A stretch of 63,994 nucleotides of DNA, the filler included, from Stramenopiles sp. TOSAG23-6 (lineage: Eukaryota), in assembly GCA_900128565.1 (NCBI GenBank). It is 9 parts of 9 records of this genome, joined end to end, with 100 filler letters (N's around TTAATTAATTAA, not from the genome) between each part and the next. Parts side by side here need not be neighbours in the genome. Positions count along the whole stretch, not along the records: positions 28,973 to 36,104 come from LT636605.1; 8 more parts are not named here. The stretch is one strand, 5' to 3'. Under the pieces are notes generated by a model, which saw nothing but the letters and a program-made list of their open reading frames with translations, was not told the DNA's origin and did no database searches. Made by a program: the position numbers and the translations under genes. Of the stretch, positions 14,586 through 49,100 are shown piece by piece (within the stretch, counting starts at the first letter, position 1; the number at the start of each line of letters is the position of its first letter).

Positions 14586-16014
14586 ACCATTAGGAGACCA
14601 GTATGCAGAGTTAATAGACAAGGAATGAGGAAGGGTCACAAGAGGCTCAGCATGTCCTGATTTAGTTTTTTTAAGCATACGGTAGTCCCAGATGCAAAGA
14701 AGGCGATCAAGTGAAGCAGTAGCAAGACAATACGTACTAGCAGATGGGAAAACACTCACCGTATTGATTTTTTTAGAATGTATGATGAAAAAATATTTCA
14801 AAAAAAAAAACTTAAATTTTGTTAGGTACAAAATTTCGTACGAAAATAAATTCGATTTTTTTGTTTAAAAAAAAATAAAAGATACATGAAGTTCCCAGAT
14901 TTCGACACCAGATGCTACCTTTGGAGATGCACGAATATCCCAATGCATAACACAACCATCTTCTTGGGCCACAAATACAGATGTAAACTCTTTGTCATTA
15001 TTCGTTGCATAGACAGAGTCCATGCATTGTGAAAAAATATTTTTTTATTTTTTTTGCAAGAAAACAAATCGTTAGGTACAAAATTCCGTACGAAAAAAAA
15101 CAATTGAAATGAAGTATGAAAATGTACATGGAATATAACGACACTTCTCCAGAATATGACTCCGAAATTTTCTGTTTCTCTACGTCCAGACATCTAATTG
15201 AACCATCATAACTTGATGATAATAGTTTAGACGTCCCTTGAAAAAGTAAGCCAGCTATCACCGAACTATGAGGATGTTGAGTTAGGACACCACCACTTTT
15301 ACCATTAACATCCAAAGGGCTTTCTTGTTGAGTTGATACAGCACCGACTCTCCAAATACCCAAGTTACCCTTTTTGTCACCTGCCGCTATAATGGTGTTG
15401 CGGGTGGCCGGGCTTATTGCCAATGAATATATACGCTCAGGTGTTAGCTTGCGAAAACCATGCTTATCATCAACTGATAGTTTCGCTAAACGTTCAGCAT
15501 ACTCTAGAGAGCCACTTTCCTGTATATTGGTTGATGAGTCGCTATTTTCTTCAGACATCGCCTTTTTTAGATCTGCAATAAAGTCCATTCCATCTGCAGA
15601 TATTTCCAATGTTCCAGGTGTAGGTTCCATTTTCGTATATGTGGAGTGTTGCGAAAGAGTTTTAAAGTCAGTAGGCAAAGCTTTGCCATCTGACGTCTTC
15701 CCTTGCTGACGCAGAGATACACGCCTTGGTCTTTTAGCTCTATCTCTACGCAATTGTTCTCGTCGTTTTGCACGCTGCTCCGCTTGAGCACGGGCTGCAC
15801 GACGAGAAGCAGCAGAGTTTACAAGGCTTGGTTGGATTTTGAGTGTTTCCTTTGTCTCAGCAATACCAAGCTTTTTCAGAAACTCGTTGTTTCGTTCGAT
15901 GTTTTGCAAACGAGCTAATTCATATGCTGAGATCTTTGGTTTCTTGCGTTTTGCAAGCTTTTCTTCTGCCCTGGGGCGCTTACGCAAAGCATACTCGCGG
16001 ACAACATTTTCCAT
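14586..16014 (-). CDS. WDR76: WD repeat protein 76 / Cmr1-like, 3'-truncated; introns 15022-15127 and 14778-14885
   Basis: SAYELARLQNIERNNEFLKKLGI, KLTPERIYSLAISP, AAGDKKGNLGIW, spliced LHSKKINTV, ATASLDR..IWDYR and SAYWSPNG. Confidence 0.85.
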
Positions 16015-20035: not shown

Positions 20036-21580
20036 ATGGATGAAGTTAGCACAAGTTGGCTCTTTGCTGATGCAGATAAGGAGGTATGGCCTCCCAGACC
20101 CCTTATTGCATGGACCCAAAAAATAGAGATTCTGCAAGGAGAAGCTGGAGGCCACGGACACCAAGAACTAATATGGGACGCATCTCAATATTTATCACTT
20201 GCTTTAGAAAATAAATATCCGACTGGTTTTGGTGGTAAAACTGTCCTCGAATTAGGCTGTGGCGTTGGATTGCTCAGTGTATACCTTGCCGTGGGTGGTG
20301 GTAACGTTCTTGCAACAGATCTTCCGCCAGCTTTAATTTTCGCAAGGAAAAATGCTGCACATAATAAGCAGTCAATTCCTGAAGGTGCTTCTTTGAATCT
20401 TGCCGCACTGCGCTGGGGTTATGAAGACGAATACCCATGGGATGATATCAAAAAAATATCGCCGATAGATTTTATTGTTGCAAGTGATGTTATCTATTCA
20501 AAAGCGACTGCTGATGGTATATTAGAAACTATAGCTCATATTGCAACACAAGGAACAATAGCGTACGTAGCGCAAGATGGACGATTGAATCATTTCTTTT
20601 TTAGTAAAGCAACTGAACTCGGTCTACAATGGCAATTAGTAGATATCAACACAAAAGGAGGCACTTTGGAACCATTAGATTTGTCTCTTCAAAACGATAT
20701 ATTGAAAGATGCGACAAAACTTGGTTCCAGTCTTGTATGTGTAAAAATTTGGAAAACCAAAATAAAAAAAAATCCTGTCCTTTTCGAGTGGTTTTCTGAG
20801 AATTTGTGTCTATCTGATGTACAATGTCGCGTATTTTCTGCTGGTGCTTCAATTCAGTCAAATATACCTTTGGTAGTCTTGCTTCATGGTGCAGGTCAAA
20901 CTAGCCAGTCATGGAAAGCATTTGTGTATACTCTACTTCAAAATGTTCCTACTGGTAGTATCAGTGTCCTTGCTATAGACTTCCGTGGACATGGTGAATC
21001 AGACCCTAACCCTAACCCTAATACGCTGACTAGTCTCAAACATAAAAAGGAACCCCTTGATCTCTCAGCTACCACCCTTGTGGAGGATGTGAAGTCAGTT
21101 CTAGATAAACTAAGTTCCCATTTGAATACATCCATCAATGTTACATTAGTTGGCCATTCAATGGGAGGTGCCATCGCAACTAGAGTGGCCTATGATATTG
21201 TTTCCTCTCCTATTGATAGAGTGTATGTATGTTTTATTTTTTTTTTTTTTACCGAAAAAAAAAAATCGAGTTTTTTTTTTTATAAAAATTTTGTACCTAA
21301 CAAATTTAAGTTTTTTTTTTTTGAAATATTTTTTCATAATCCATTTTGATAGAAAATGGAAGATAGATGGCTTAATAGTTGTTGATGTCTGTGAAGGGAC
21401 AGCTATACAATCGTATGTTTTATTTTTTTCAATTTCGAGTTTTTTTTTCGTACGAAATGTTGTACCTAACAAAAATATTACAAAAAAAAAATATTTTTCA
21501 AAATACATGTTAGATTCAGTCGCACAAATGCTGTGCTCACGACCTCAATCTTTTCCATCAGAAAAGGCCGCAATAAAATG
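20036..21580 (+). CDS. METTL21-family lysine methyltransferase fused to a PME-1-like alpha/beta-hydrolase; 3'-truncated; introns 21227-21344, 21413-21508 and 21581 onward
   Basis: IWDAS..L, VLELGCGVGL, LRWG and DFIVASDVIY, followed in the same frame by LLHGAG, DFRGHG, LVGHSMGGAIA and VVDVCEGTA...RPQSFPS..AIKW. Confidence 0.85.
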
Positions 21581-21882: not shown

Positions 21883-23933
21883 TTATTTACTCTTTTCTAT
21901 ACAACTCTTTGATAAACAAAAACAACCAAATGGATTTCCATATTTCTCGGAATCAATAATTATATCACGAATACTTGATGCTGTACCTAGTACAATCAAT
22001 ATAACACTCATAAAGATAAGTGAATAAATATTGTGAAAAAATATTTCAAAAATTTGATTTTTTTTGTTAGGTACATATTATAGTACAAAAAAAAATAAAA
22101 AAATAAAAAAATAAAAAAATAAATGATGATGATGAAAACGTACATATACTATACTTGCTCCAAAATGATAAACGTATAAAATTTTTCTTGGCTACTTCAA
22201 GATACAAAACAGATGGTATTAAAAGGGCTAGAGGTGCAGAACACAAAGCTCCTATAAGTTCAACAAAGTCATCAAAAAATGGAATTGCATTTGATAAAAT
22301 CCATGCTAAAACAGAAACTATTGATGTAATAAAGAACCACTCCACCTTGGATTTATGAAAACCTTTCTGAGAAGAATGAAGTACTGTGAAAAAATATTTT
22401 TTTTTTTGGAAAAAATTGTTAGGTACAAAATTTACTACGAAAAAAAACATTCAATTTCGAAAAAACATACAAGACAATCTGCAGATTTTGCATTATAAAA
22501 TTTATGGATGCGTTTACATAACACCTGTTGATTTAGTACGTATGAAACTATCATATGCAATAGCATTAGTGCATTAGCAAAATTTCTCTTTATATTATAG
22601 GGTAATACATCCATTATATATATATTGTGAAAAAATATTTTTTTTTTTTTCGTAAAAAAAATTCGTTAGGTACGAATTTTGGTACCAAAAAACAAAATAT
22701 GAAATAGGATGAAACATACAGTGTGGCGCTTTATCACCAAGAATTGTATAACCTGAAATACATATAAAAGAGTATATAATCAGCATCACTGGAGTTGCAG
22801 TCAATAAACTTTTAGTAAAATCCTCTGGGCGTCGCATTTCGTGCATCATTTCTAAGTAGATTTTTTGTCCAGACATTGCAAAAACAAATGAGCATGTCTT
22901 GTGAAAATTAAAAAAAAATCGTTAGGTACAAAATTTCGTACCAAAAAAACATTTAATTCAAAATTAAAAGTGAATTTTGAAAACGTGCATAATGTGGTAG
23001 AAATGGTCCAAAAACTGATATTTGGAGATACGATAAATGTTTCGCCAGTCTCAGGCGCAGGTGTATCGAAAATTTCAAAAGTACACATTAGTAGAACTAT
23101 AAAAATGTATTGAGAAAAAATATTTGTTTTTTGTAAAAAATTTTAAAAAATGTTACATACAAAATGCATACAAAATTTTTAAAAAATGGTACGGAAACCC
23201 TAACCCTAACCCGAGGAGGTAAAAAATGCCTGATGAAAACGTTCATAGTGATAGCTGAAAATAAGGATGCTAGTGAAATATTCTTTAGAGTTCTCATTTG
23301 ATTGGGTAATAGAAGAATCAAAACGATGATGATTCCAGCTACTGGTCGACAGATATCTGAATTGAAGAAAATACCTTGAAGACTCTTGGATAAAACAATA
23401 ACGTAGTCACCCAGTAGCAAAAATATGGAAATATATAGCATAGCATAGCATAAGCTTTTTCCTCGAGACCCAAAGACTTCACCTGCTAAATCACCTAGCG
23501 TTGTGATGTTAGGATAGTATGATCTTGCATATACGAGTAAGAAACCAGTATAAAGGTTAGCTGCGTAGCACAGAGGTAACAAGATTAAACCACCGAGCCA
23601 ACCAACTCTTGAGAATGCACCTAAAAGCGAAAGCACCCCTGAGCCAATGATATCTGCTAGAAGCAAAAAGGATACATGATACCATTCACTTACGGCAACA
23701 AGTTGACTACCACGAGATAAACGGCGTGTCTTTGACAAATCAGGTTGATGATGATAGTTCTTTGTAAAGTCAAACTCATCAGTACTGCTTTTTAGTGCAA
23801 AGTTAATCCTCGTAGATTCATTTTCAAGAGACGAAGGAAAACTACCAGATTTTGTATTAATTTTAAACATGGAACTATTTTCATTAACGTCATCGACTAC
23901 TTCCGAACGTCCTATTGGAATTACTGAATTCAT
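21883..23933 (-). CDS. Amino-acid transporter (AAAP/Aa_trans family); 5 introns
   Basis: LLADIIGSGVLSL...GWLGG, FAMSGQ...EMRRPEDF and IPFFDDFVELIGAL. The frame is restored by removing 23105-23244, 22894-22988, 22620-22719, 22379-22470 and 22026-22143. Confidence 0.9.
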
Positions 23934-25407: not shown

Positions 25408-27085
25408 ATGTCTAATTCAGAATCGTTCGACGAAGAAAAAGAAAATCTGACCATTGCTTCCACAACGGAAGATCTCCGAGAAGAAATATTGTATTCAATT
25501 GAAGCTATTCTTGTTTCTCACCATGAGAATTTGCGTCGAACGGCTAAGATTGAACAACGCTTATCTTTATGCATGGATCAAGTTGAAACACCGTTTCCAA
25601 ATTGTTTGTCTTTGCTCATGCCTGCGCTGGTTCTTTTAGAGATAGATCTTTATGAATTTTTGCCTACGTACATTTTTGCGCTGCAGATAGCGATAGTATG
25701 CGTCGTTTTTCTTACATACATGCATACTAATTTGTGGAAAATAGTGAAAACTATTCAGGGTAATATTCAAATAAACAAAAACGCAACTACCAAAAAAGAT
25801 ACAAATAAATTGTGCGTAAAACTGTTTAAACATAACGACGATACAAATAAACGAGATTCTATAAATACAAAAGCAATTCCAATTCTATCGCCTCTGCAAC
25901 AAAAGACACCAACAAAGGAAAGTGATATGTCATATGTATCTTCTCTAGTCAAATCCATTGCTCTGTCAGCTGATACGTTACATAATTTAGGGCGACATGT
26001 ACGTTTTCATTTTAATTTCGATTTTTTTTTTTTTGTACCAAATTCTGTACCTAACAAATTTTTAAAAAATATATATTTTTTCACATACATGAAGAAGTCG
26101 TTAAACTTCTAGAGAATGGAAAGTGTGGTAATGTATATTCACTGGCTTTTGAATTAAGAGGAATATCTAAAGCAGTGCTTTTATGGCGATTAGCCCGTGC
26201 TTATTGGGAGTTAAGTGAATTGAGAAAAGCGGCAAAAGATTCAAAAGGAAGGATAAAAATGTCAAGACACGCAAAATATACGTTTTCATCATTATGAATC
26301 TTTTTTTTTTACTATGAAAATTTTCATAGGAAATTTTGTACCTAACAATTTTTTTTAGATTTTTTTTTGAAATATTTTTTTACAATATTTATGTTTCATT
26401 TGAAGCACTCAAAACTGATCCACTTTCTCCAATGGGATATATTTGGTATGCAATATGTAATGAGGAGGCAGCAAGTGCAGGTGGGATTATTGTTGAAAAA
26501 GTGAAAGCGGGTCAGGAGTTCAAAGAAAATGTACATTTTCAAAATTGAAACCCTAACCCTTTTTTTTTTCATAGTAAATTTTGTACCTAACAAAAAAAAA
26601 TTTTCAAAAAAAAAAAATATTTTTTCACAATACATGCCTCAAAGGCCTTGAAAATGCTTGAAGACAATGCAAATAGTGCTCATGCTTTCCGTGATAAATT
26701 TGGCCAAATTCTCGTATCAAATGATTTTGATATCACTGTGGAGAGTGAAAAATGCAATGTTTTATATATGCTTGGTCGATGGTCATATGAGGTGGCATGT
26801 ATCAGCTGGTGGGAGAGAAAAGCTGCTGAAGCAGTAGCTGGAAAGATTCCAGAATCATCATTCAATGAAGCCTTAGATATGTTCAATCAGGCTTTGAATT
26901 GCAATATTGAATTGAAACCAGGTTCAACAATAATGCACGCAATCTATTTGTGGAAGGGTAAAACTCTGATGAAGTTAAATAGAAAAGACGAAGCGGTCGA
27001 AAGTTTGAAGAAAATCACTACAAAATTACCACAAAATACTCCAGAGCAAAAAGCTTTCCACAAACGAAGTCAAAAATATATATGA
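25408..27085 (+). CDS. Regulator of microtubule dynamics (RMDN/PTPIP51)-like TPR protein; introns 25999-26090, 26278-26390 and 26531-26635
   Basis: LLWRLARAY, WYAIC and YMLGRWSYEVACISWWERKAA...PESSFNEAL. Confidence 0.85.
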
Positions 27086-27705: not shown

Positions 27706-28872
27706 TTAATTTTTCTTTCTTTTTCTATATTTCTTTGATTTTTTTTTAATTTTTTTCTTTGTAGATTTTCTGTGTGCTTTGNTATTGTTGTTACTCTTGC
27801 TAAATTTTTCTCCAACTGAAATGCTTGACTTGAAAAGCTCATCAAAGAATTCAAGAATTTCGAGCCGAATTGCTCTGATTTTGTTACCCATAAGTTCTTG
27901 TAAGCATTTTGTATTTTCTGAAAGATTTTTTTTTCTTTTTTGTTTTTTTTTCGAATTCTGTTTTTTTACTTTGTTTTTCATAGGGAATTTTGTACCCATT
28001 ATTTTTTTTACTTCAAGTTGTTTATCTCCACTGCCTGAATGCGACGTTAAGTTGACTCTATCCGAAAATTTTGTAAATGTATCCGATGCCAGTTGATATA
28101 TATACTGTGAAAAATATTTTTTTGTAAAATTTATTAAAAACTTTGTACGAAACCAAAAAAAAAAAAAACATAAATTTGAAATTTATGAGGAAAATATACA
28201 ACTGCGCTGCTCCCACATTTAGCATATGTTGTACAGTGCCTTCATCAAGAAAATAACGTGTCTTGAAAAAAATTGGTATCTCAGATGGTGGTGCAATATC
28301 TACAGGTCGAAATGGCAATCTATGTTTTTTTATTTCTTCAAGAATGTATTGTGAAAAATATTTTTTTTGTTTTTAGAAATAAAAAAAATCGTTAGCCTAT
28401 GAAATTTGTACGAGAAAACAAAAGTGTAGATAAAAATCCAATTTTGAAAATGTACATATTGTACCGTAAACTTTCCATTACATATCTTAGATTTAGATGT
28501 ACTGCAGCAATAATATTAGACATTTTTTCAATTGATTGTGACTTTGAACAAACTGCTTCTATACCGTCCTTTGCCAGTAAATTAATAAATCCATCATGTA
28601 TTGATTTGATATTAAAAGTATTAAATGTCGATGGAAATCTTACTTCATCAATTTTGAAAAGCTTTTTTAAAGTGTCAAGTTTTTCTTCTATAGTGCCTTC
28701 AATCAGAGAAGGCACCTGATGAAATCCATTTAATCTTAAACCTCCTGAATCATACTGACCTAGAGAGATGACATCTCCAAGATTCATAGTTGCATGANGC
28801 CTGCCTNGAGGTACGTACATAGTCTCTCCTTTCTGTAATATACATGAGGCTATCATACCTTTATCTCGGGCT
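27706..28872 (-). CDS. JmjC/cupin domain protein, C-terminal part; introns 28344-28455 and 28100-28199
   Basis: CILQKGETMYVPxGRxHATMNL matches the JmjC C-terminus. Splicing joins three ORFs that end in a Lys-rich tail. Confidence 0.75.
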
Positions 28873-29063: not shown

Positions 29064-29936
29064 ATAAGTAGTGGATTGCCTCCAATGTCAAAATACATGC
29101 CAAGGTTTGAAAGTTGAACTTGTTTAGAAGAACAGAAAGTTACAAGTGCTTTAAACTCTTTCAAGCAAAAAGTCAATTGTGTGTCTATAGTTAACTGACT
29201 ATGAACAAAATCATTCCGTATTGTGAAAAAATATTTTTTTTTGGTAGAAATAAAAAAGTCGTTAGGTACAAAATTTCGTACGAAAAAATAAATAAATTTG
29301 AAATTCATGATGGAGGCGTACACAATTAATACTCAAATCTGTCTGTAAAGTATTATATACATCAGCGCCATCAAGTGTTGGATGGAACGAGGAAAGATTT
29401 AAAGATGTCTCTGACGCTTCTACGGCTAAAACAATTTCTTGCGTTCCAGCAATATGATCAACTAACTCTTTTAGCATTAAAGTGCGTGCAATCACCATAT
29501 TAGAAACCTTATCTTGGTCATATAAAGCCTGCATGATATCGGCTTCCTCGAAAACAAAAGAATATGTTTTTACCATACCATATTTACAGTGAACTTTGAA
29601 AATAAGTGCTGGTTCAACACCGTCTGTGTGGAGGGTCATGACAACACGCTCAACACTACGAGACGTCCGAAAAACACTAAGGCAACATTTCATCGATATT
29701 CGAATAGGCGGCACATTGCCAGTGGAACGAAAGTCTTCAAAGAAATCAACACAGAAGTCAAACTTTGAGAAGGCTTGTTTGGAATCACTGAGAGCTCGAA
29801 GACGCATCATGGAATTGCAAACTTCAATCGAAACTTCTTTTCCGATTTGAGCAAGGCATTTCAAAGCTTGAGATAGTATCAATAAATTATTGGCACCGAC
29901 CGACGCCATGAAAGATGCATTTCCAGAGGAAGACAT
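29064..29936 (-). CDS. RAD9: Checkpoint clamp subunit Rad9, 3'-truncated; intron 29216-29321
   Basis: ALKCLAQIGKEV, LRALSDSKQAF, CKYGMVKTY, TFCLKEFKAL and YFDIGGNPL. Confidence 0.9.
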
Positions 29937-30541: not shown

Positions 30542-30973
30542 ATGTTAACGAATATTTTTCATATAATATTTTTAGCTTTAATTTTTGTCGGAAAAATCTC
30601 AAATGCTGAGGCAAAACATCACTCGCGCTTACGACGTAAGCTTAAGGCTTTACAGCATCATCATAATGGACAGAAAAAAGTACAAAATGACCAAAACGGT
30701 AAAGAAATTTCTCGTCGTCTTCTTCCTGAAATTCTTGGAGCGAATGTTTTTCGCTTTACAAAGGTTTCTAAAACAGACGACGATGACGACAAGAAAAAAG
30801 GCTTGACTAAACTTCAAATAAGCAATATCATTAGTCTTTGTAATGATGCGGATGATAATGGTCTTCCTCAAAAAGCCTGTATGGATAGAGAATTGAAAAA
30901 AGTGCAAAGTGAAGAAGATAACGCAGCAGCCTTAGACATAAATTACGCAAATGGACTCAATGAGTATCCTTGA
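30542..30973 (+). CDS. Small secreted hypothetical protein
   Basis: Signal-peptide-like MLTNIFHIIFLALIFVGKISNAEA; 143 aa. Confidence 0.6.
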   Translation: MLTNIFHIIFLALIFVGKISNAEAKHHSRLRRKLKALQHHHNGQKKVQNDQNGKEISRRLLPEILGANVFRFTKVSKTDDDDDKKKGLTKLQISNIISLCNDADDNGLPQKACMDRELKKVQSEEDNAAALDINYANGLNEYP

Positions 30974-31537
30974 GACGAAACTTCAACTGAAATTTCTTTT
31001 TATTTTGAATTGCCAAATCGGCTATCATTGTATAGATTGTATAACAATATCAATATAATGCTTGTATTACTATTAGTAAGAAGATAAATAGTTATATTAG
31101 TTTAGTAAGAAATGAGGATCGATGAGGATTAAAAGAAACTCTTTTTTTTTCGTGAGAAAATAAAATGTCGCGAAATTTGAAATTCGAATCTAATACTAGT
31201 ATTAATATATAATAATTATATAATAACTAATAAATTCTCCTTTTATAATATTATTATCGTAATTTTCACTTCAATTTTGTTTTTTTTGAGGTTTTTGATG
31301 TGATGGCGATGCGCGATGATGATGGCCGATTTTTCATTTTTTTGACTACTGTTTCGCACACAAACAAAGTAGATAGTGATGATCTAAGATCAAGATCATC
31401 ATCAGATTTTCTCAGTCTCTCTCTCTCACTCGTGTCTAAAGGCTAAAGTTATCGTAGCTAACTTCTTCGCCAACGAAAGTTGTACACTGGTTGTGTTACG
31501 TGGCATATTTATCCATTTAGATCAATACGAAGCCCAT

Positions 31538-34500
31538 ATGTCATCACCCAACCGAGATGGACTTTGGCATCCGCGGGAGCGTGACTATATTGGTGAAAAA
31601 GCGCAATTTTTTCTTTCGAGAGAACGCTGCAGTGACCATCCACTTGTTACAGAGGGGAATTCTTCTATGAAAAATGCCCGAGTCGTAGAAACGGAAAATT
31701 CCCCTCAAAAATCAAAACAAAAATCAAAACAAAAATCTTTATCTACGTCAGAAAATACAGATATCGATCCGTTATCTATGATGTTGACAGAGTCATGTGG
31801 GGACCCTCTCACTTCGATGATGTCTAATATGGACATTAAGTCATCAAAACCAATGCTAGAAAGGGCAAGCATTCACAGAGGCTCAATCAGTCGACCATGG
31901 AAACCTCGCTCGAAGGGAGAAGAGAAATGGGATGAAAAATCAGCTGAGATATTGAAAAGCTGTACACTAACAGGAAAAATTCGTTTTAACGTAAACATCA
32001 TGGATGATTCCGATGCTCAGACTGCTGGTGAAGAAGTAGGTGTATCTCTGGAAAAAGCACGACACAGACTCGAAGAACTTGAAAAACGTGCTAAATCTAG
32101 CGCTTTAACAGAAGAGTACAGTCAAACGGAGTATGTTGATATGATAGATGAGTTAAAAATACAAATCAGAGAAGCATGGGAGGGCAATGAACGTGTCAAC
32201 TCTCTAAAACGAGCAATTCAGTGTGCGAAAATGTTAGGTTCAACAAATGTACCTCAATTTTATCCTTCCATGTTTGTTTTAATATCAGGGGTTTTGGATT
32301 CATTTGGAGATCTTGTGTTTACCCGTATGAAGGCGCGGAGTGAGGAAGTCACGGGTACGTTTTCATCATGAATGTAAAAAAAAAATATTTTGTATGAAAT
32401 TTCGTACCTAACGATTTTTTTTCTTTTTTTTTTTTACAACACATGTGTTCCGTTGAAGGATGATTTTACCCATGAAGATGTTTGTCTAGAGGCTAAAGAA
32501 ACTTGTCGTAATTGGTTTTACAAAATCGCATGTATTAGAGAACTTCTTCCAAGAGTGTACATTGAGATGGCATGTACGTTTTCAAAATTGAATTTCGAAT
32601 TTTTTTTTTTTTTTTGTAAAAAAATTTTGTACCTAACAAATTTTTTTTATTATCCAAAAAAAAAAAAAATAATATTTTTCCAAAATACATTAGTACGATG
32701 TTATAGATTTCTCACATCGGATAAAGACTATCTTGCAATCATTACTAGGATCTCGCATATTCTTAGAGGCATTGGTGACCCTATGGTTGCTTTATATGCC
32801 AGGGTATATCTTTCTAGAGTAGCTCATTCACAACAACTCGATAGGTCGGATCCCACGATATCGTCAATTGATGACTATATATTCTCTATAGGCGAATTTA
32901 AACAGAAAAAAATACAAAATATAGCAAAATCAGCAGGGATTACTTTTGATGAGTTTATGTATGTTTTATTTTTTTTTTTAAACAAAAAATCGATTTTTTT
33001 TTTTTGGTTTCGTACGAAATGTTATACCTAACAATTTGTTTTTGAAATATTTTTCCAAAATACATGTCATTACAGTCTCATGGATTAGAAATGTTACTTC
33101 ACTACTCTGCAGAATTTATGACCAAAAAACAATTTTCAACGATTATGAAGAGATATTCTACTATTTCGGGAGAGAGTTCCGTATTAGTTCCTATAATTCG
33201 AGGAATGCCACCCAAATTTATGGATTTGAATGCGATGAAGTTTGTACATCTAATCAAGGAAAGTAAGATGTGTGATCGAGATGAAAGAAAGGTGGATGAA
33301 GCATATCCATTTGATACTTCACATGTACGTTTTCATCATTCATTTTAATTTCGAATTTAATTTTTTTTTCATACGAAATTTTGTACCTAACGTAAAAATC
33401 AAATTTTTGGAAAAAATTCACAAAATATTCGGATGCATTTATGTACGTTTCATATGAATTTCTATTTAAGTTTTTTTTTCATTTGAAATTTCGTACCTAA
33501 CGATTTTAATGTTTGAAATATTTTTTTATAATCCATGGCTTTAGGTCAAGGATTTTTGGATCACCCTCCACCTAAAGATCTTCGAATACCAGTACTCAAT
33601 GAAGCTTGGAAGGTTATTAAATCTGAAAAGTCATTTGCTAGATACACGTACGTTTTCATTTCATTTCATTTTCGAATTTCTTAATTTTTTTTGGTACGAA
33701 ATTTTGTACCTAACAAAATATTTTTTCACTAAAAAAAAAAAAATATTTTTCACAATACACAAAATGTGTAAAGACGTATATGGCTGTACTTGTGGAACAC
33801 TATAGTGAACGAGAGGTACTAATCCTCTTGAAGGATCTTGTGAAACACGCTAATCAAGTGGAAAACAAAGATATTGAAGATAATTTAGAGGCCATTGAAT
33901 CAACGGTTGAGTCCGTTGTGAAAAATGCATCAGATTTCGGTATGATTTTGACTTCAGAACATTTTATGGCAGTGATGGATTTATTTAAGAGTGACAAGAA
34001 AACAACACTTTGTAAATCAATGTTGACTCATTTTTGTACTACATCTGGTACAACGTCCGATCCTGTTGTCATTCATACAGTATTTGACTTGGCACGAAAT
34101 CTACATGATTCAGTTGATTTGTTATCTACTGTGGAAGAGCGCGAAACTATGGCAAATCTTATTTGCAAATTTATGGAAAAAGTTGATTTTGGGCGTGATT
34201 TGGAACAGCAACTTAATGTATATGTTGATTGTCGTTCAGGCTTTGCAAACTTAGACTCTGTGAATGTGTATGTGTTCAAAATTGAAATTTTTACCTATTT
34301 ATTTTTTCGTACGAAATTTCGTACCTAACGATTTTTTTTAAACTAAAAAAAAAAAAATTCACAATACATCCGGCTTGTTGTTTCAACTGCATCTTTGGTA
34401 ATGCGTGCTCATAAAATTATGTCAGGTCGGCATAATCGTAAAACTGCTGCATTTACTAAAGCTTGTTTGGCATATTGTCATGTTACTATCCCTACAATTG

Positions 34501-35500
34501 ATTCATGTACCTTTCAAAATTAAATGTTAATTTTTTTTTGGTATGAAATTTCGTACCTAATGATTTTTTTCTACAAAATTTTTCACAACACATGTTTTAC
34601 TCGGATGAAACTTTTCTTACATTGTGGGAGAGTTGCATTAATAAATCAGTGTTTACCTCAAATGGAAACAATGCTTAAAGAAGCAATCAATCTTATTGGT
34701 GATGCTCCTGCGATAGACTACATACCTAACTATTCGCGCCTTGGCACAAAGCAGAATACTGAAGGGTGGATGATTTCTTATATTTCTTCTTTATTATCAC
34801 TTCTTGTAGTTATACCAGGGAATCCAGACCCAAAGAAAGGAGCATTTTTTATTTTCAAGGGCTTACTAAAAGCAGTACAGAAATATCCATGGGTTTTGAG
34901 TCAAGGTGGAAAGACGGATGTGTACGTTTTCATTTCAATTTCGATTTTTTTTTTCGTACGAAATTTTGTACCTAACGATTTTGCTTTTGAAATATTTTTT
35001 CACAATACGTGTACATCAAAATGATATCAATGTTGTGTTGTTATTGCCAAAAGCGTCTTCCATATCACGTCCCTGGTGTATCTTCAAATGATGTATTGTA
35101 TGGTACAAGTGACAGAGAATATATTAAACAAGCAAATATTTATATTAATGATTTATTTGACGATGTGTGCCGCGAACAGTTACCCAAATTAATTGTGGGT
35201 GGACAGGAAGAAAAATTGACAAAGATAGGTATGCGTATGGCAATATCTTTACTTAATCAAATTCTCGCTTCAGTTGACATAACACCAAAAACAGCAAAAT
35301 ACGCAACGAAACTTCTGAAATTAGTAGCTAAAAATAAGACAGATCCTGAAACAAGTGAATATATATATTTTGCTAATACTGTTGAGTATCTCCATAAAAT
35401 GTCAACAGTTGCTGAAAGGGAAAAATCAACTACTGTAAAAGAAATCATTTCTCTTCATTTATCAGCTGTTTCTTGTCTAGATGAAACCAAGCGAAAATAA
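31538..35500 (+). CDS. VPS35L: VPS35 endosomal protein-sorting factor-like (C16orf62, Retriever subunit); 9 introns
   Basis: PQFYPSMFVL, AKETCRNWFYKIACIRELLPR, RGIGDPMVALYARVYL, LNEAWKV, DFGRDLEQQL and RKTAAF. Introns at 32355-32444, 32574-32690, 32959-33065, 33325-33428, 33443-33536, 33648-33760, 34268-34369, 34507-34593 and 34922-35010. Confidence 0.95.
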
Positions 35501-35546
35501 ATGGTATATAAAATTCATCAGGTTTACTTTCTTACAAGTAAGTCAA

Positions 35547-35690
35547 ATGTATGAGAGAAACAATGAATCTTTTTATTGAATTATGTATGAGAGACACAAT
35601 GAATCTTTTTATTGAATTATGTATGAGAGACACAATGAATTTTTTTATTGAATTATGTATGAGAGACACAATGAATCTTTTTATTGAATT
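35547..35690. repeat. Tandem repeat, 4 x 36 nt (ATGTATGAGAGACACAATGAATCTTTTTATTGAATT), with an inverted copy at about 36061-36104
   Basis: Units start at 35547, 35583, 35619 and 35655 with no spacers between them. Confidence 0.9.
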
Positions 35691-36284: not shown

Positions 36285-37176
36285 AACCTACATCTTCTCC
36301 GTCATTAGGTTCAATGAAATCTATGCGTTGTTTCAAATTATCCAATGCGGTTTTAACTTCCATATCCTCAATATACTTATCAAAATCAAGGTCTTGCGTA
36401 AATTGTAAAAGATCCTCCAATTCTTCTTCCTATAAAGTTCAAAAATATTTCAAAAAAACTAAAATTTGTTAGGTACAAAATTTCCTACGAAAAAAAAAAT
36501 ATTTGTAAAAATTTTAAAAAAATCTAGGGTTAGGATTAGGGTTAGGGTATACATCAAATACATCCAACTCATCTTTTTCTTCTTGTTGCTTTCCTTCCAA
36601 ATATGCCCATGCAGGTTTTTTTCCTTTACTAGCTTTTAATTTCTTTTTCTGCGCTTTCGATAATTGAAGTTGTTGTTCTTTCTTATGCAACTCTGCACCA
36701 AGATCTGCTAAATCACCTAACGATGATTCATCATCATCAGATGCTTCCAACTGTTTCGTGTCTTCTTCTGTTTCAGGTTTGTTTGAAGAAACACCTCTTA
36801 TTTTATTGCGAGCAGCTTGTTCACGTGCCGCAAATATTTTACGGTTTTCTTCTTTTTTTTGTTCTTTTTGTACAATCTCATTTTCTATTTTTTTTTTATC
36901 GGATTGAAGCTTCTTTAACCAACGTTTATGTTTTTGTACAACTGATAACTTTTTCTTTGGTTTTTCGTGTGATATTGGTTTTTTAGCTGGGTTAAGACCA
37001 AGCTCTTTATTAGTAACTAGGTTTCCACCCGCTCTGAAGGGTGCTCTGCCTTGTGATTTACTCCCTGCTGCACCATGAGCTCTAGCAGCACCAGCGGCAG
37101 TACCAGCAAATGGGCGGTTACACAACATAACCCCTTTATAATTACCGATTGACGGTGCTCCAGTACCGGTCGACAT
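36285..37176 (-). CDS. Hypothetical coiled-coil protein, 3'-truncated; intron 36430-36552
   Basis: IGNYKGVMLCNRP N-terminus, KPAWA, and spliced EEELEDLLQFTQDLDFDKYIEDMEV. Confidence 0.75.
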
Positions 37177-37633: not shown

Positions 37634-39010
37634 TCACCACATTTTTTCTATACCATGTTTTATCATAGCATCCTTTGAAACAATAGTAACATCACCACAA
37701 CTTGCCCATACTTGTGGTGTTTGTTCACAATCCCAACGCCATTTATTGTACAAAAATATTTCAAAATTTGTTTTTTTTTGTTAGGTACAAAATTTCCTAT
37801 GAAATTTTTTTTTTAAATGTTTTTTTTTTTAAATATATAGTGTTTAACTATTTTGATACAATAAACGTACAACCAATGACATATTGACCGGGTGGTAAGT
37901 TGTCAGGGATCTTTACTAAATCAACAATTGCAGGAATTTCTTTTGTCTTATCTCCAGTTAATGGATTAGGATCAATATGATATCCCCAACATATATTGTG
38001 AAAAAAATTAAAAATTCGAAATTGGTCAAAAAAAATTCGTTAGGTACAAAATTTCGTACGAAAAAAAAACAAAAAAAAAAACACTTACAAGTTTCATCAC
38101 ATCCTTCAGGAGGTGGGAATTGTGGTGGTGAGCATGATTTCCCAGAGTACGTTTTTCCTACACCAATACCACCACAACTAGGAATTGGATTTCGTGTCCA
38201 TTGACTTCCTTCTGGGACAGTTCCTTTTGAAATTCGCATGGCATCAATCACAACTTCATGGCCATTATTCCATCGTAAAAATTGACTTGTACCAGAAAAT
38301 TCAAGTGGTGTTTTTTGAAAGCATTCTTCAGTAAGTGGCTCAGAGGAAGGACACAGACGGTAGGAGTATCCACCACCATGATTAGCTGTAATACCCCAAG
38401 ACACTTCAACAACTGAACCAGCGACCCAAGTGGTATTTGACCATGTAACCCGTGGAAGCCATTTGGAACCAAAAACGCCTTGCTTATGTGCAATCGTTTC
38501 GGTGCCAATTCCACCAGCTTTATCATTATTTACAGTTGAACCACCAGATACACCACATGCATCTAATACAGGAGCTGCGCCAGGATGTCGCCAAGGGTGG
38601 TGTAACGTCCAATCTCTAGGTAGTGGAAGAGTAGAGGGTCCACGAGCACCATGCCAACCAGGTCTCAAATTTCCTGGTTTGGTATTATTAACATTGTATG
38701 TTCGTAGCTCTTTTGGAAGAGTTGCATTTGGATATTCTACTCCACATGCGCTTGTGAAATTCATAAAATTGTTGAATGTGTCGACACATTTGTCACAGCC
38801 AATCGTACATCCTTGTGAAAACCACATACACGCCAAACCTTCACAGCCAGATGCATTGATACCTATAGGGTATCCTGGTAAAGCACCCGCATTTCTAGAT
38901 GGAGGATAATTCATTGCTCCATGGCCTTGCACGGATATCAATATACCTAATAAATATGATATGATTGATAATATAACACCTGTTTTGAAATTATTAAAGT
39001 AATGCATCAT
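37634..39010 (-). CDS. Secreted LPMO-like (His-brace) protein; introns 37991-38088 and 37741-37870
   Basis: Signal peptide ending VQG, then HGAMNYPPSRN; ANHGGGYSYRLCP; spliced PGQYVIGWRWDCEQTPQVWASCGDV. Confidence 0.8.
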
Positions 39011-39221: not shown

Positions 39222-40525
39222 TTAAGTATCAAATATTTCTGTAAAAATGGCNCCCAATGCTATACAGTCTGAAAGTAAATTTTGAAAAGCAATTCTTTTT
39301 TTTTTGTTTTTCTTTACAGTAGTTGTTGAATCTAGTAATTTATTTTTCTTTTCTATTTCTTTTGTATCTAAATTTGTACCTAATAAATTAAAAATTGCAC
39401 CGGCTGCGGATACTTGGCATGAAATATCTGAGACAAATAATAAAGCTGTAAGTGATGGTATAGATTTCGTATTAGCTATAATAAGATTTCGTGATATTGA
39501 TTCCCTAGAAAGATTTTGAAGTGTTCCTGCCGCCGATGCAGTTATTGTATTATATATTGAATTTGTCGATTTATTTGATTTATTTAACTGTATGGCCAAC
39601 AGATTAATCAAATGATTAATTCCTCCTGATATACATTGTGGAAAATATGAAGGGTTTAGGGTTATGAAAATATTTAGAATTGTTTTCATTGTTTTTAAAA
39701 ATAATTATATAGACATGTACTTTCATTTTCATATAAAAAATAATAATAAATTTGAAATTCATAATGAAAAACATACATCCTTATTTTTATGATACTTTCA
39801 CAGTCCGAACTAAGATTATGAATTATTCCAGTAGCTCTTGCACGTAACGCATCATGTGAATTATTTAATAAGGGTACAATTAATGGAATAACACCTTTTT
39901 GACTAGCTATCACACGACCATCTCTTTGGTAGCAGATGCTTTGTAATGCACCAGCTGCACTTGTTTGAAGACCAATGTCATTCGATTTTATAAATGTACA
40001 TAAAATTTCAAGTCCAGAATTTTGTAAAACATATTTAACATTATACTCATCATAACACATATTTAATACAGCATTTGCACCTTCTTTTGCTATTTCAGGT
40101 GACCTTGGGAAACGAATGAGGTGCAGTACACATTGAACTCCAAGTTGTCCAATATTTTCCCTATTTTGTTGTTTACGTAAAAGTATTTTATATATTTGTA
40201 ACACATATAATGAAATCTCTGTAGATTTTTGAACAGCTTTGTTACTAGCAAACGCGTTCAATGATTCAAAATCATCGTTTTTGTCATTAGATAAATTGTA
40301 GCTTTCTGAAGGGACTTTATTTCCATTGACAAATACCTGTAACAAATTAACTAACTCAGAATAGTTTAATGTGATTGCTTGAGGATGTGACTTTAAATAT
40401 TGCGTGATTGACTTCATACTATATTTTTTATTACTCTTTATTGACTGTTGACACTCCGTATCAGAAGTTGAAGTAGCCAGTTTCTTTGTGTTTTGCTTTG
40501 AATCAATATCACGTTTTGATTCCAT
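39222..40525 (-). CDS. Armadillo-repeat protein; intron 39631-39776
   Basis: Repeated AAGALQSIC, ATGIIHNLS, AAGTLQNLS and AAGAIFNL ARM helices. Confidence 0.85.
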
Positions 40526-41129: not shown

Positions 41130-41970
41130 ATGACTTCAATAATTCCAAAGACAGGAGATGCTGAAGCGTCCACGCAAACTTTTAACGAAACTCCTGAAGA
41201 AAAATTCTCAGGCTACCATTCAGATGATAAAGAAGATTTTGAAGATTCCGAAGATTCCGATGATGATGTGTATGAATCAAAACGTGCTGCTTTAGCCAGA
41301 GGTAGTTTGGCAGATTGGGCTAAAAGTGACGACGAGGAAGCTAACGAATTATTAGAGCAAACTCCTGAAATCCTAACAGGAGAAAGGAAAGAAAAATATA
41401 GAGGTCGTTCTCTTGTTGCTGGTCTTATTGCAGCGATTGATAATACACGCAAAGAACTCCGCAAGCCAGATGAACCTCCTGAACCTTATTATTGGGAAGC
41501 TGGTTATCCAGAAGACCCTGAAAACGTTGGCGTCACACAAAAAGTTGGAGAAAATGTCCATTGGATAGGTAGTAAAGGCGTGAGTGGTATGGAATACGTA
41601 GGAGAGACTGTTGTTAATTTCTTTGGTCTTGACCGAGATAAGTACCAATGGATGCGAGACCAAGCAGTACGTGATAGACAAAGACGTCGAGATCGTATGT
41701 TTTATTTTTTTTTAATTTTGATTTGTTTTTTTTTTTCGTACGAAATTTTGTACCTAACAAATTTTACGTTTTTTTTTTNACAACATAGGTCGGTTACAAA
41801 AATCAAAGCAACGTGCTTTATTACTCCAACAACAGTTAGATGCGGAAAATGAAGAGATTGAGAGATTAGAAAAAGAACTTTTAAATAATCCTGATACGAA
41901 AAATGATTCAATCGATGAATCTGGTGCATCTTCAATTGATGTAATGAAAATTGAGGAAATAAAAAAATAA
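41130..41970 (+). CDS. Acidic hypothetical protein; intron 41695-41788 (GT-AG)
   Basis: After splicing, the ORF continues as RLQKSKQRALLLQQQL...IKK-stop. Confidence 0.7.
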
Positions 41971-45162: not shown

Positions 45163-45907
45163 GGAAATTTTGAAAAAGGTTGCTTCTTCAAATATTTCGT
45201 CCACCTGCGAAAACGGAGAATCGGAAAATCCGGATACTTCAACATTTATGAATCAACTTCTTGCAGCAGCTGATGAAGATTTTGCTGCAGCTCCAATTGA
45301 AGATCCCCGTAAAGCTAATGAAGAAATGATGAAAGAGTTTTCCAGATCATTGGAAACACTCGGTGCATTTTCTGGGTTTGCTAATGAATGTATGTTTTAT
45401 TTTTTTTCAATTTCGAATTTATTTTTTTTTCGTACGTAATTTTGTACCTAACGATTTTTTTTTGAAATATTTTTCCAAAATACATACAATAGTTCTAAAG
45501 AGACTAAACCCAAAAGTAATTCTGTCGATCGTAGTATTGAATACAATGCGTCTAATGATGGTCCTAATAGTATATCAAGTAAAACTAAATCCTCAGAAGT
45601 TTTGGAAGTAGGAGATTCAAGTATAAATCAATCCTCAGAAGTTTTGGAAGTAGGAGATTCAATTATAAAGCAACCGGAGCATAGTATCTTGGATGAAGGC
45701 AACAAACTGATAGTAAAAGTAAAACTTCCAGGTGTGTTGGATATTTCCTTAGTCGATTTAGATATCAAAAGTAATAAGATAAGGTTAAAGACTCGATCGC
45801 CTATTCGATACGAATTGTCTTTACTTCTTCCTCGCTCTGTAAATCCGGATTATGGATCTGCGAAATTTAACAAAAAGAAACAACAATTAAAAGTGATTTT
45901 TCGATAA
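45163..45907 (+). CDS. C-terminal CS/HSP20-like domain, probably the inverted 3' part of the PIH1 gene; intron 45390-45485
   Basis: LIVKVKLPGV...VDLDI...YELSLLLP..VNPD..SAKFNKKKQQLKV. The segment starts abruptly after a poly-T run, with no clear start of its own. Confidence 0.7.
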
Positions 45908-46103: not shown

Positions 46104-49100
46104 CTATTCGCCTTTCAATCTTTTAATTTCTTTCCAAATTAGAGCCGCGCGTTTATGCATTTGGTTTGTTTTTTCATCAAGTCTGCGAATTTCCGCCTTT
46201 CCCCGGTTCACTTTATCCTTCAAATTCTCCAGAGCTTCGTTTTTCTTAAACGCTAGGTCCCCAGAAGTGCTATCTTTTCTGTGTTCCTCGTACATAATAG
46301 ATTGCTTAACTTGCGTCAACTCAGCTTTGAAAGCAGTTTTTTTAAGACTCTCGAGACTTCGTATAGGTGTAAGAGTCGCAATATTATTTTGTCGTGATAT
46401 TGGCCTGGGTTTCTTTGAAAATACTCCACCGCCGAGGTTATAAAATGTTTTCCCTCCAAGAGACATTAAATTTCGAAATGATATCGTCAAATTGATGTTG
46501 CTGTGTTTCAGAGAGGCAAATATTACAGAAGACCCAATAACACCAACGTTAGCAAGTATTATAAATCCGTCAAGGACAAACTTTTGTGCTTCGGTACGTG
46601 ATGGATGTTCTCGCAAATACCAAGCCACGACATACATACTGCATTGTACTGATAATGAAAACATAGATATACAGTTCAATGCTGGAGATATAAAAGGTTC
46701 TCTAAATCCAACGTATCCAAAGAAAAGTAGAGTAATAACAATAGCAACCATGAGCTGCTCTGACGAATTTGGAAGTACATATTGAATGAATACACACACT
46801 ATCAATTTTCGAAACATTTCCATTACTTCAAACATATAAAATCCAGCACGATACTCTCCGTGCAAAAAACGGAAGCGTGATCGAATTTCTCTATATCTCG
46901 ACCACAAACGCTCCATAGATAGTTCTTCGGCTTTCCAAACTAGTGTCTTTAGTACAAAGTACGGAGTTCCTAAAGTGTACAGAAAAACACAAAGAAAACA
47001 CTCCGGTGCAACATTTTTCATTGTTTCCATCGTACATGGAATTGTAGGATTAATACTCAATATCCATTGAACTCCGTCTGGGTGTATTTGACACTGTGTC
47101 AAATCAAATATTGATCGTGTGACAGGAATAAATGATAGCATTAAAACCCAACATGATAGATTGTATGCAATTAAATAACGACGCCGTTCTGTCTTTCTTC
47201 TCTCATTCAATCGTTTAGAACTTTCATCTGCGGCACCATCTTTGACAGAAAACGCTTCCATTAATTGGCGCTTCCGATTCCAAATCGACTCAACAAAGAA
47301 GTCTTTGATATCGATACATTGTATTAGAAAACGTATACATAGTATTATTATAAGTGGCCCAACCACAATGTAAAGTAATAAATCTGTCAGAGGCTTATCC
47401 ATTGCGTTGTTAAGACATCCTGATGCATTTAAGAATGATACGTGAAGATCAATAAAATCAAAAAATATGAGGAATCTCCATATTAAATCAGTCCAAGGAA
47501 TAGTAAATACATGAGTCATTGCATTGAGGCATTGTATGTGACTGATGATTATTTTGGTATGTCCGATGATTTCATCATAACATTCTAGTCTTGCCTCGCG
47601 CTTTGCTATTTTGAGTGTTGTCTTTAGAAGTGCCTTTTCCTCTGGAGACATGCCCACGTACTTTGGGGCAGAATAAATATATTCTAATTTAGATGCTAAA
47701 GAATCATTCTTTTGGGGTACAGTTTCTCTCTCTTCTAATTTACTGCTCTTGCTTTCTTCTGCATCTCTAATACTATCATTTTTATTAATGGTATTTATTA
47801 CACTACCGTCTTTTTCAGTATCCTTGGTTTCATCAACAGCATCATGTATGATGAAAAAATATTTCAAAAAGAAAATCGTTAGGTACAAAATTCCGTACGG
47901 AAAAAAAATCGATTTTTTTGTTTAAAAAAAAAATAAAACATACATCATCTTCTTTATGATCAGAATCGTATTCGTACTCTGACGACGACGAATACTCAGA
48001 CGTTGTATTCACTTCATCTTTTAATACTTCTCCAAATAAAACTCTACAGTTAACCGCATCTTTATGACCCAAACTTGCACACGAAAAGCACCATCGAGCA
48101 ACCTTTTCCGACTCAATTCCCATTTCTGGATGCAATCTGCGACAATCTTGACAAGTCTTTCTGTGCTTCTTCTGTTTCATCTCTGGGCTCATTTTCTTTT
48201 CATCTCCTTTCACCGGGAGACTCCTTCTTCCCCCTCGAGCTTCACGAATGCCACACGAGATGTTCACTTTCTTTAATTCTCTATATTCCTCCCAGCATCG
48301 AATTTCATCTTGTTTTGATGCTTCTTCCCAAGATTGTTTTTCCTGGATAGTGAGATGACGCCACATAGCATTGAGTTCACGAAATAGTTGCTCTTCATCT
48401 TCTATGAGCTCCGGTCGACGCTGTAATATCCCTGGAGCCATTGCTTCTCTAAAAGCTTCTTTATTAGTCATATGACGCTGGCGAATACCACGGCTATCGC
48501 GGTCTTTATATTCAGCACGCATACGCCAAAGAGAATCTTTTTTTGTCTTGATTAACATTTCTTTACTCTCTACATTACTTATAGGAGAAATATGCCCTGA
48601 AACTTTGATATTACTCTCTTCATAAGTGTCCACTGCAACATGTATTTTACTTCTTCTAAAACAACAAAAACATATCTTGGCTAACAACAATAAAATCTTT
48701 CTGCAGGTCTGATACATCCAAACTGTAAAAACATGTATTCGTTTATATGCAGATAAGAATGTACCAAAGATGATCTTATGGAGGAGAGTAAAAATAGAAA
48801 TTTGATAGCAAAATATACAGCAATAAACCTTTGTCAATAAAAACAAAGCAAAGCAGAAACCGATGAATATTCCGAATGAAAGTCCATTACTTGTCCACAA
48901 AGGACCAGGAAGATTATCGGTGCATGACATACACATCTTATGAAATCTTATAAATCCACTTTCACATATTTTACAATATATTGATCCATCTAGATAACCA
49001 ACCGCACAGCTATCACCGGCTGTACCATTTACATTTGTCAAACTTATACATGGCATCTGCTGGCGAACAGTTTGGTCACACAATCTATTTGGAATTTTAC

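Follow-up and report, generated by a model that had tools for sequence, protein, structure and literature searches.

Repeated introns without a 3' AG are cut in fixed register to a conserved 3' block in the marine stramenopile Stramenopiles sp. TOSAG23-6

An AG at the 3' end of the intron is among the most constant signals in eukaryotic genes. In the window analysed here, a stretch of 63,994 nucleotides of AT-rich eukaryotic DNA from Stramenopiles sp. TOSAG23-6, 36 of 38 complete copies of one family of repeated introns lack this AG, and the cut falls in a fixed register to a conserved block of sequence at the 3' end of the intron. Five points are regarded as demonstrated: the family exists, its cut keeps that register, AGs close to the 3' end go unused, the spacing of an upstream ACCTAAC box is variable, and the 5' cut is made at GT and not 2 bases upstream of it. 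The best explanation, and one that we consider probable, is that these are spliceosomal introns of a single repeated, introner-like family in a MAST-3 marine stramenopile (the name MAST-3 being taken from the source name of an identical protein), with the termini GU...AU and with a 3' cut placed by the conserved 3' block. Two of the introns, 32355-32444 and 32574-32690, had been singled out and correctly located in a preliminary description of this DNA, and its observation of non-AG introns with a motif-fixed 3' end proves real and strong. The description missed that the introns are copies of one repeated, introner-like and probably mobile element, and it did not weigh a true branch located within the 3' block, by which the distance from branch to cut would again be constant.

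The family and its conserved blocks

Copies of the family are 87-146 bases long and follow the layout (AT)GTAYGTTTTCA ... AATTTCGA ... T run ... CGTACGAAATTTTGT-ACCTAAC-RA ... T/A runs ... GAAATATTTTTTCACAATAC + 2 bases, in which three blocks are common: GTAYGTTTT at the 5' end, a central block that ends in ACCTAAC, and the 3' block GAAATATTTTTTCACAATAC, after which come the last 2 bases of the intron. Pairwise identity averages 65% and reaches 86% at most; it stands at 75-80% in the three blocks, at 54-59% in the spacers and at 26-29% in the exon flanks. Every one of the 38 complete copies splits a reading frame and has sense orientation; none is antisense or intergenic, and together they are found in several unrelated genes (VPS35L, Rad9, a PPME1-like gene, an amino-acid transporter gene and a FAM177-like gene, among others), the pattern of many similar introns in unrelated genes by which introners are recognized. 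Counting both strands, the 64 kb contain the heptamer ACCTAAC 41 times, nearly always within the common family sequence frame. Both introns of the preliminary description start with GTACGTTTTCA; the first ends in TTTACAACAC followed by AT and the second in TTTCCAAAATAC followed by AT. Two introns ending in AG, in which the AG had been said to occupy the equivalent position, do have it there: 41695-41788 ends in NACAACAT followed by AG, and in 36430-36552 (minus strand) the AG comes 11 bases after GAAATATTTTT, the spacing of the consensus.

Two of the three signals expected of a U2-type intron are in place. The 5' site is GTRAGT/GTAYGT-like: GT opens 35 of the 38 copies (GC, GA and AT open one each), 37 of 38 begin with G (36 of 37 in the logo), A stands at +3 in 37/37 and T at +6 in 36/37, position +5 is G in 29 and C in 2 of the 37, and conservation extends to +9. 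A putative U2-type branch box, ACCTAAC or TAAC-like, is present in nearly all copies together with a pyrimidine run; in the alignment of 35 copies the T and A of CTAAC never vary, and T occupies positions -15 to -11 in 32-37 of 37 copies. The third signal, the terminal AG, is found in 2 of the 38 copies, the last two bases being AT in 28, TT in 4, and TG, GG, AC and GT in 1 each. On the exon side of the 5' junction, T is the last base in 32/37 and A the penultimate base in 25/37, which is unusually strong for coding sequence; this AT may reflect where the element prefers to insert, or a requirement of splicing. A GTA[ACT][AG]T scan, together with the neighbouring frames, turned up no clear conventional GT-AG intron in the window.

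The 38 complete copies comprise a first set of 35 and three added later, of which 23105-23244 and 39631-39776 had been missed by the family profile and 36430-36552 had been matched in part. This profile, built from 22 copies, matches the window 52 times, 45 of them outside a redundant piece and 7 within it (50643-57755). One match contains single Ns, one is a degenerate 48-base fragment outside the long frames (46048-46095), and 8 are truncated at piece ends, as though the assembly had broken at the intron repeat. The pieces in question are nine stretches of about 7.1 kb (7149 down to 7113 bases, the last being 6139) joined by N44-TTAATTAATTAA-N44 linkers at 7150-7249, 14396-14495, 21636-21735, 28873-28972, 36105-36204, 43329-43428, 50543-50642 and 57756-57855; because the window is a set of joined pieces, neighbourhood across a linker is meaningless. 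Both introns named by the preliminary description lie on the piece 28973-36104. Pieces 7250-14395 and 50643-57755 are 99.4% identical, six introns are identical in both, and the 47 columns at which they differ all fall in 7750-7860, a short tandem repeat outside genes; this looks like assembly redundancy. Searches for further copies elsewhere gave matches that are put down to chance: 64 metagenome-contig loci and 6 viral loci for a 17-base central motif, and 2 viral loci for the 19-base 3' block; in all of these loci the family profile matches nothing beyond the seed itself.

Register of the cut

When copies are excised from GT to 2 bases after the 3' block, the reading frame stays open for 75 bases to either side in all 36 copies that could be tested, and in 15 of these no other register is open. 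A rule that cuts at the nearest AG lying 8 or more bases past the TAAC box leaves the frame open in 18 of 36. This test omitted the two copies that flank a 14-base exon, which are covered by the frame of the whole gene and by an RNA contig. The exact position of the cut rests on the nine junctions of the VPS35L gene compared with related proteins, on an RNA contig that spans two introns, and on a contig that begins at a junction. A logo anchored on the 3' end, one of the checks that the preliminary description had proposed, holds 0.9-2.0 bits at positions -21 to -1 and at most 0.28 bit from +1 onwards (37 copies); its information falls exactly at +1.

Neither AG scanning nor distance from the ACCTAAC box accounts for this position. 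An AG lies between the box and the end in 11 of 35 copies. Three copies have an AG inside the 3' block, 5 bases before the cut (192-288 and 22379-22470, CACAGTAC; 28100-28199, CACAGTAT); it is skipped in all three, and its use would break the frame in each. By comparison with related proteins, AGs situated 3 and 10 bases into the next exon are likewise unused at 32690 and 33065. The distance from ACCTAAC to the end of the intron is 28-54 bases (median 38), and in the two introns first described the final base comes 33 and 54 bases after the second A of TAAC, just as had been claimed. The skipped AGs and the 28-54 base range support the earlier proposal that the 3' cut is set by a terminal motif, neither by the first AG nor by a fixed distance from ACCTAAC, and an AG-independent 3' site anchored to the motif is supported.

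The junctions can be followed through the VPS35L gene (32000-35503). Removal of nine introns joins its 10 exons into a single frame of 866 residues, and a protein search with one exon returned 22 proteins with VPS35L domains. The spliced model aligns without gaps at all nine junctions with one relative, P0002 (74% identical in the query exon), and with eight further relatives (P0002-P0014), regarded as intron-free, most of these proteins coming from contigs about as long as their own coding sequence. The deposited model, P0001, is 100% identical in the exon and is labelled in its source as an assembled coding sequence of a MAST-3 assembly; most of the nine introns are wrongly spliced in it, residues being dropped or intron sequence translated. 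Its junction at 32690 is moved to the TAG 3 bases downstream, at the cost of a V kept by all relatives (MALVRC); at 33065 two residues are missing, and at 34268 and 34922 it reads into the intron. The open frame of VPS35L also extends upstream of the ATG at 32000, to 31388 (plus strand).

RNA evidence comes from one poly(A) metatranscriptome run. In RNA contig X8 record 21, letters 1-79 correspond to 33246-33324 and letters 92-197 to 33535-33640, and the 12 intervening letters plus the shared AT equal the length of the 14-base exon 33429-33442. The match of X8 record 20 starts at 33064 (ATGTCATT...), after 21 letters from elsewhere. Other joints in RNA contigs aligned to 28973-36104 were set aside, being mostly chimeras between intron copies. 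Summed contig depth (X6) runs to thousands over intron copies (28973-29210, 33019-33494, 34923-35160) against 0-5 over exons; it is not readable as expression, and it may reflect many genomic copies, stable excised introns, unspliced RNA or DNA carry-over.

The coordinates of the copies are collected in Table 1.

Table 1. Complete copies of the intron family and the VPS35L micro-exon, in coordinates of the window
Feature	Position	Strand	Ends	Remarks
VPS35L intron 1	32355..32444	+	GT...AT	90 nt; ACCTAAC 32406-32412; 3' block about 32427-32442; exon ends GG, cut unambiguous to the left
VPS35L intron 2	32574..32690	+	GT...AT	117 nt; ACCTAAC 32631-32637; 3' block 32670-32688; TAG at +3 unused
VPS35L intron 3	32959..33065	+	GT...AT	107 nt; TTACAG at +10 unused (would give a stop)
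VPS35L intron 4	33325..33428	+	GT...AT	104 nt; X8 record 21 joins 33324 to 33535
14-base micro-exon	33429..33442	+		between two family introns; X8 record 21, frame, relatives
VPS35L intron 5	33443..33536	+	GT...AT	94 nt; 3' block TTTATAATCC
VPS35L intron 6	33648..33760	+	GT...AC	113 nt; ATACAC at both borders, cut can slide 6 bases left
VPS35L intron 7	34268..34369	+	GT...AT	102 nt; frame and relatives
VPS35L intron 8	34507..34593	+	GTACCT...AT	87 nt; ACCTAAT; frame and relatives
VPS35L intron 9	34922..35010	+	GT...GT	89 nt; GTGTAC at both borders
Family intron	192..288	-	GT...AT	CACAGTAC block with unused AG; ACTTACC replaces ACCTAAC
Family intron	10105..10203	-	GT...AT	
Family intron	10826..10917	-	GT...AT	9 bases ACAATACAT at 5' exon end and intron end
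Family intron	11058..11150	-	GT...AT	exon ends TA; sole open register
Family intron	12441..12536	-	GTACAT...AT	
Family intron	12638..12726	-	GT...TT	sole open register
Family intron	12886..12979	-	GT...TG	
Family intron	14778..14885	-	GT...AT	
Family intron	15022..15127	-	GT...AT	
Family intron, PPME1-like gene	21227..21344	+	GT...AT	
Family intron, PPME1-like gene	21413..21508	+	GT...AT	exon ends TC
Family intron, amino-acid transporter gene	22026..22143	-	GT...TT	
Family intron	22379..22470	-	GT...TT	exon also ends TT; unused AG in CACAGTAC block
Family intron	22620..22719	-	GT...AT	
Family intron, GC start	22894..22988	-	GC...AT	ATGC at both borders
Diverged family intron, GA start	23105..23244	-	GAACGT...CTCAATAC+AT	holds GGGTTAGGGTTAGGGTTT; AG 8 bases downstream gives a stop
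Family intron	25999..26090	+	GT...AT	one-base deletion in 3' block (CACATAC); frame follows TAC+2
Family intron, AT start	26278..26390	+	ATACGT...TT	
Family intron	26531..26635	+	GT...AT	
Family intron	28100..28199	-	GT...AT	unused AG in CACAGTAT block; TTTTTAAT replaces ACCTAAC
Family intron	28344..28455	-	GT...AT	
Family intron, Rad9 gene	29216..29321	-	GT...GG	
Family intron ending AG	36430..36552	-		AG at the equivalent place; holds CCCTAA repeats
Family intron	37741..37870	-	GT...AT	
Family intron, GTAAGT start	37991..38088	-	GT...AT	
Diverged family intron	39631..39776	-	GT...AT	CATAACCCTAAACCC replaces ACCTAAC
Family intron ending AG	41695..41788	+		AG at the equivalent place
Family intron	45390..45485	+	GT...AT	
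Family intron	47844..47943	-	GT...AT	

Some of the host genes deserve separate mention. The frame 19985-21580 (plus strand) joins an N-terminal part (VLELGCGVGLL...) to a PPME1-like alpha/beta hydrolase; we take the N-terminal part to be methyltransferase-like on our own reading of it, not on a scan. Relative to other PPME1 proteins, an insert of 11 residues spans the junction of intron 21227-21344, and a PDB search with 21345-21581 gave no match. A homologue search with the 430-residue exon 11151-12440 returned 3 distant proteins only. The Rad9 exons match human RAD9A, in an alignment that ends before the junction. Two long frames, 1211-2224 and 2124-4832, overlap at 2124-2224 (plus strand) and are out of register with each other, and nothing intron-like separates them; the overlap is probably a frameshift error at a homopolymer and not an intron. 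Finally, telomere-like CCCTAA/TTAGGG repeats of 2-4 units are seen inside family introns, at 36500-36545 (minus), 26548-26562 (plus), 39650-39665 (minus) and 23195-23212 (minus), and at about 24270-24290 (plus); one of these stretches is intergenic.

Mechanism and competing explanations

In the explanation that we favour, each copy carries an ordinary 5' splice site GTAYGT + TTT, a yeast-like branch box (T)ACCTAAC, a T run and the 3' block GAAATATTTTTTCACAATAC, and the major spliceosome would perform the first step as usual. The RNA would be cut ahead of the G that opens GTAYGT and, at the other end, precisely 2 bases beyond the 3' block, where a sequence-specific reader of the block would set the bond in the active site irrespective of what those two bases are. 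This reader could be a divergent U2AF-like factor, a second-step factor or a small nuclear RNA (snRNA). An Rfam scan of the window found no RNA family and no snRNA gene. The family itself would have multiplied as a mobile element. Of the short target-site duplication, usually AT, left at each insertion, one copy would be the base pair of letters that follows the block, such that removal of the element and of one repeat would restore the original frame. Because the cut would be position-defined and AG-independent, any insertion could be cleanly spliced.

The borders of the copies carry repeats 2-9 bases long. At least 2 repeated bases are found across the borders of 30 of 35 copies, against 24.8 (standard deviation 1.7) when 5' and 3' ends are re-paired at random (P 0.002), and the summed length of the repeats is 104 against 84.5 in the re-paired controls (P 0.0006). 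The telling cases are AC/AC (33648), GT/GT (34922), TT/TT (22470), ATGC/ATGC in the copy with the GC start (22988) and the 9 bases at 10917. These repeats fit a short target-site duplication that prefers AT, without proving it.

A number of points weigh against the explanation that we favour. The frame test fixes the cut modulo 3 only, and a border repeat of 2-4 bases leaves the cut pair ambiguous in most copies. For the 8 copies that end in TT, TG, GG, AC or GT, related proteins check the exact cut at 33760 (AC) and 35010 (GT) only, both of which have border repeats. The RNA support is thin, consisting of metatranscriptome Logan contigs among which one clearly bridges, its 12 inner letters being known by number only. 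The duplication signal is modest as well: exon and intron end in the same two bases in 21 of 35 copies, and the excess is weak and falls short of significance in the 17 copies that are not AT/AT (12 against 9.8, P 0.10). In the consensus there are no terminal inverted repeats beyond GTA/TAC; no autonomous or coding copy was seen, and no copy clearly outside a gene. The copies are old, with an identity of 86% at most, and nothing points to recent movement. As for the reader of the 3' block, it is entirely hypothetical. Lastly, the branch point is predicted from sequence only, and with an A at -9 kept in 35 of 37 copies the true branch could lie in the 3' block.

A branch in the 3' block is the main rival explanation. 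It would place the branch at one of the kept adenosines of TTCACAAT and the cut at a short fixed distance from it, in the manner of minor (U12-type) introns and much like the fused branch/3' motif of Giardia, with ACCTAAC reduced to an enhancer or a relic, and the machinery would possibly be a transformed minor spliceosome with co-evolved snRNAs. We judge this unlikely, though it draws on several features of the family: adenosines at -9, -7 and -6 are kept in 35, 34 and 34 of 37 copies, within a pyrimidine run; the 3' block is kept in copies where ACCTAAC is lost (192-288, 28100-28199, 39631-39776); and the 5' site is conserved to +9, as U12-type sites are. The U12-type introns of Physarum have their branch motif 9-12 bases before the 3' site (10.1101/2020.10.12.336362). 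The 6-9 bases that separate the adenosines from the cut here are, however, shorter than the 9-12 of Physarum, and the 5' site GTAYGT, with G and not C at +5, is not the U12-type RTATCCTT. A one-base deletion in 25999-26090 falls between CAC and TAC, and the cut there stays 2 bases after TAC and does not keep its distance from the CAC adenosine; the copy with CTCAATAC has T at -9, so the A at -9 is not universal; and a TAAC-like box lies 28-54 bases upstream in nearly all copies, with the T and A of CTAAC invariant in 35. Set against the U12 branch sequence TTCCTTRAC, ACCTAAC is similar but sits 28-54 bases away from the end, and the adenosine-bearing 3' block differs in sequence.

It is improbable, and more so than a branch in the block, that the family is simply the general intron type of this organism, its members alike through strong selection on long splicing signals and never mobile. 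Such a history would agree with the lack of any clear intron of another kind in the window, with the concentration of conservation in three blocks, and with copies that are old and none of them clearly outside a gene. It sits badly with the sub-families, which have long stretches in common that play no known part in splicing (AAACAAAAAAATCGA, AATTTCGAATTT), and with border repeats in excess of the re-paired controls.

A shift of both cuts by 2 bases to the left, which would make the introns AT...AC (NN...AC) and the AT after the block exonic, has very little probability in our assessment. As AT precedes GT in 25 of the 38 copies, these yield an identical mRNA with either cut pair, and the bases that would then end the intron are well kept (C at -3 in 27/37, A at -4 in 31/37). 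The first intron base would however be A in 25, T in 7, G in 4 and C in 1 of 37 copies, which is implausible for spliceosome chemistry. The residues encoded at the junctions also speak for GT: at 32355 the GT cut gives G, as in P0002, and the shifted cut C; at 21413 the GT cut gives S, where four of four PPME1 relatives have A or S, and the shifted cut M. Two further junctions do not discriminate, namely 34268 (V or I, both present in relatives) and 29321 (C or W, the relatives having C, F or T). The introns are read as GT...AT because the first base is G and because of the junction residues at 32355 and 21413.

The preliminary description had also raised pairing between the two intron ends (ATGTA/TACAT and TTTTCA/TGAAA), as in euglenid non-conventional introns, and had proposed folding and covariation analyses, which lend the idea no support. 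RNAalifold on 35 copies returned zero consensus pairs. The two end helices, taken as ATGTA/TACAT and TTTCA/TGAAA, can pair in 74.4% of cells against 75.4% after shuffling of the columns, with 437 of 500 shuffles at least as high, and a hairpin before the TAAC box (GTACGA/TTGTAC) in 77.1% against 77.5%; covariation is absent from both the end helices and the hairpin. Fourteen single-intron folds gave z values from +0.62 to -2.73, mostly through pairing of A runs with U runs. Where the exon does not end in AT, matching copies show a direct repeat (AC/AC, GT/GT, TT/TT) and not a complement. End pairing is a property of the consensus only.

Removal without a spliceosome, whether through end pairing of the euglenid kind or at the level of DNA as for the eliminated sequences of ciliates, is the least credible reading: the consensus ends are complementary, 81% of the cells of the ATGTA/TACAT helix can pair and the borders do carry 2-base direct repeats, but there is neither covariation nor a consensus structure, the canonical GTAYGT, TAAC box and T run are all present, and borders other than AT are direct repeats. 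Ciliate-like elimination is rejected because the DNA retains the intron stretches, as seen from DNA runs that contain 77-83% of the words of the stretch and from RNA-library contigs that also carry intron sequence.

Comparison with known introns and implications

The introner elements of Micromonas, Aureococcus, dinoflagellates and others resemble the family closely in kind, since they too are many near-identical sense introns of about 100 bases in unrelated genes, with short direct repeats at their borders and a frame that is restored when the element and one repeat are removed (PMC7789003, PMC12130899). They have been described with canonical splice sites, for example in Aureococcus (PMC7789003), whereas 36 of the 38 copies here are without a 3' AG. 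One introner survey treats families with unfamiliar splice sites as suspect and screens them out (PMC12130899). The introners of Amoebophrya, another marine protist, come nearer in this respect, having non-GT-AG borders, direct repeats of 3-5 bases over the exon/intron boundaries, and genes on which standard gene prediction fails (PMC7789003). Their ends can be folded together by inverted repeats of 8-20 bases, their terminal dinucleotides are not fixed, and U1 was not found (PMC7789003). In the present family, by contrast, the 5' GT is canonical and a branch box is present, the alignment contains direct repeats and no inverted repeats of 8-20 bases, no structure is seen, and the 3' end alone deviates.

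As to mechanism, the nearest proven parallel to a reader of the 3' block is offered by Fritillaria borealis, in which non-AG 3' ends are the norm and are read by a changed 3' splice-site reader; divergent U2AF paralogues were shown by experiment to bind the non-canonical 3' ends (PMC13326754). Fritillaria is an animal lineage with experimental U2AF data, whereas the reader proposed here is deduced from the DNA sequence. U12-type introns, including the expanded set of Physarum, likewise have a 3' site positioned from an upstream motif, tolerate unusual termini such as GT-AT and show long 5' conservation (10.1101/2020.10.12.336362); the family differs from them in a 5' site that is GTAYGTTTT and not RTATCCTT, and in an ACCTAAC box 28-54 bases from the end and not 9-12. 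Giardia introns combine a 5' [G|C]TATGT with a long 3' motif, CT[A|G]ACACACAG, that fixes the cut (PMC10711314), and are thus similar in having a GTATGT-like 5' site and a long 3' motif. In Giardia the branch box is part of the motif, which ends in AG, whereas here the TAAC box is separate and at variable distance, and the end is AT (PMC10711314). Euglenid non-conventional introns share non-GT-AG borders with the family (PMC4770533), but secondary structure joins their ends and both borders are variable (PMC4770533), neither of which was found here.

In the literature searched, no paper was found that links introners or non-canonical introns with MAST-3, and a motif-set non-AG 3' end like that of this family was not found described; in the available parts of the single-cell genome paper on MAST-3 and other stramenopiles, introns are mentioned in the gene-prediction methods only (PMC5778133), and a second paper on such genomes brings them up no further than in counts describing genome architecture.

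The family matters in the first place for the rules of splicing. With 36 of 38 introns in 64 kb devoid of a 3' AG, yet with a normal 5' site and branch box, it allows the way in which the second step of splicing locates its target to be addressed in isolation. A cut defined by position would also account for the precise excision of a mobile intron irrespective of the bases duplicated at its insertion. There are practical consequences as well. Gene finders that require GT-AG fail here, as the errors in the deposited VPS35L model show; gene counts and completeness estimates for such single-cell genomes are probably too low, and errors in their protein sets pass into reference databases.

A wider proposal, which we put forward tentatively and with less confidence than the account of the family itself, is that the MAST-3 spliceosome has changed its 3' rule, such that most or all of its introns would be of the GU...AU class, with a cut set by a block some 20 bases long and not by AG, and would have arisen with a genome-wide burst of one mobile intron whose clean excision depends on this position-defined cut. 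If this is true, the organism would be the first free-living protist with GT-AT as its majority intron class, and the family and its machinery would show, in nature, a mobile intron and the reader of the 3' splice site evolving together.

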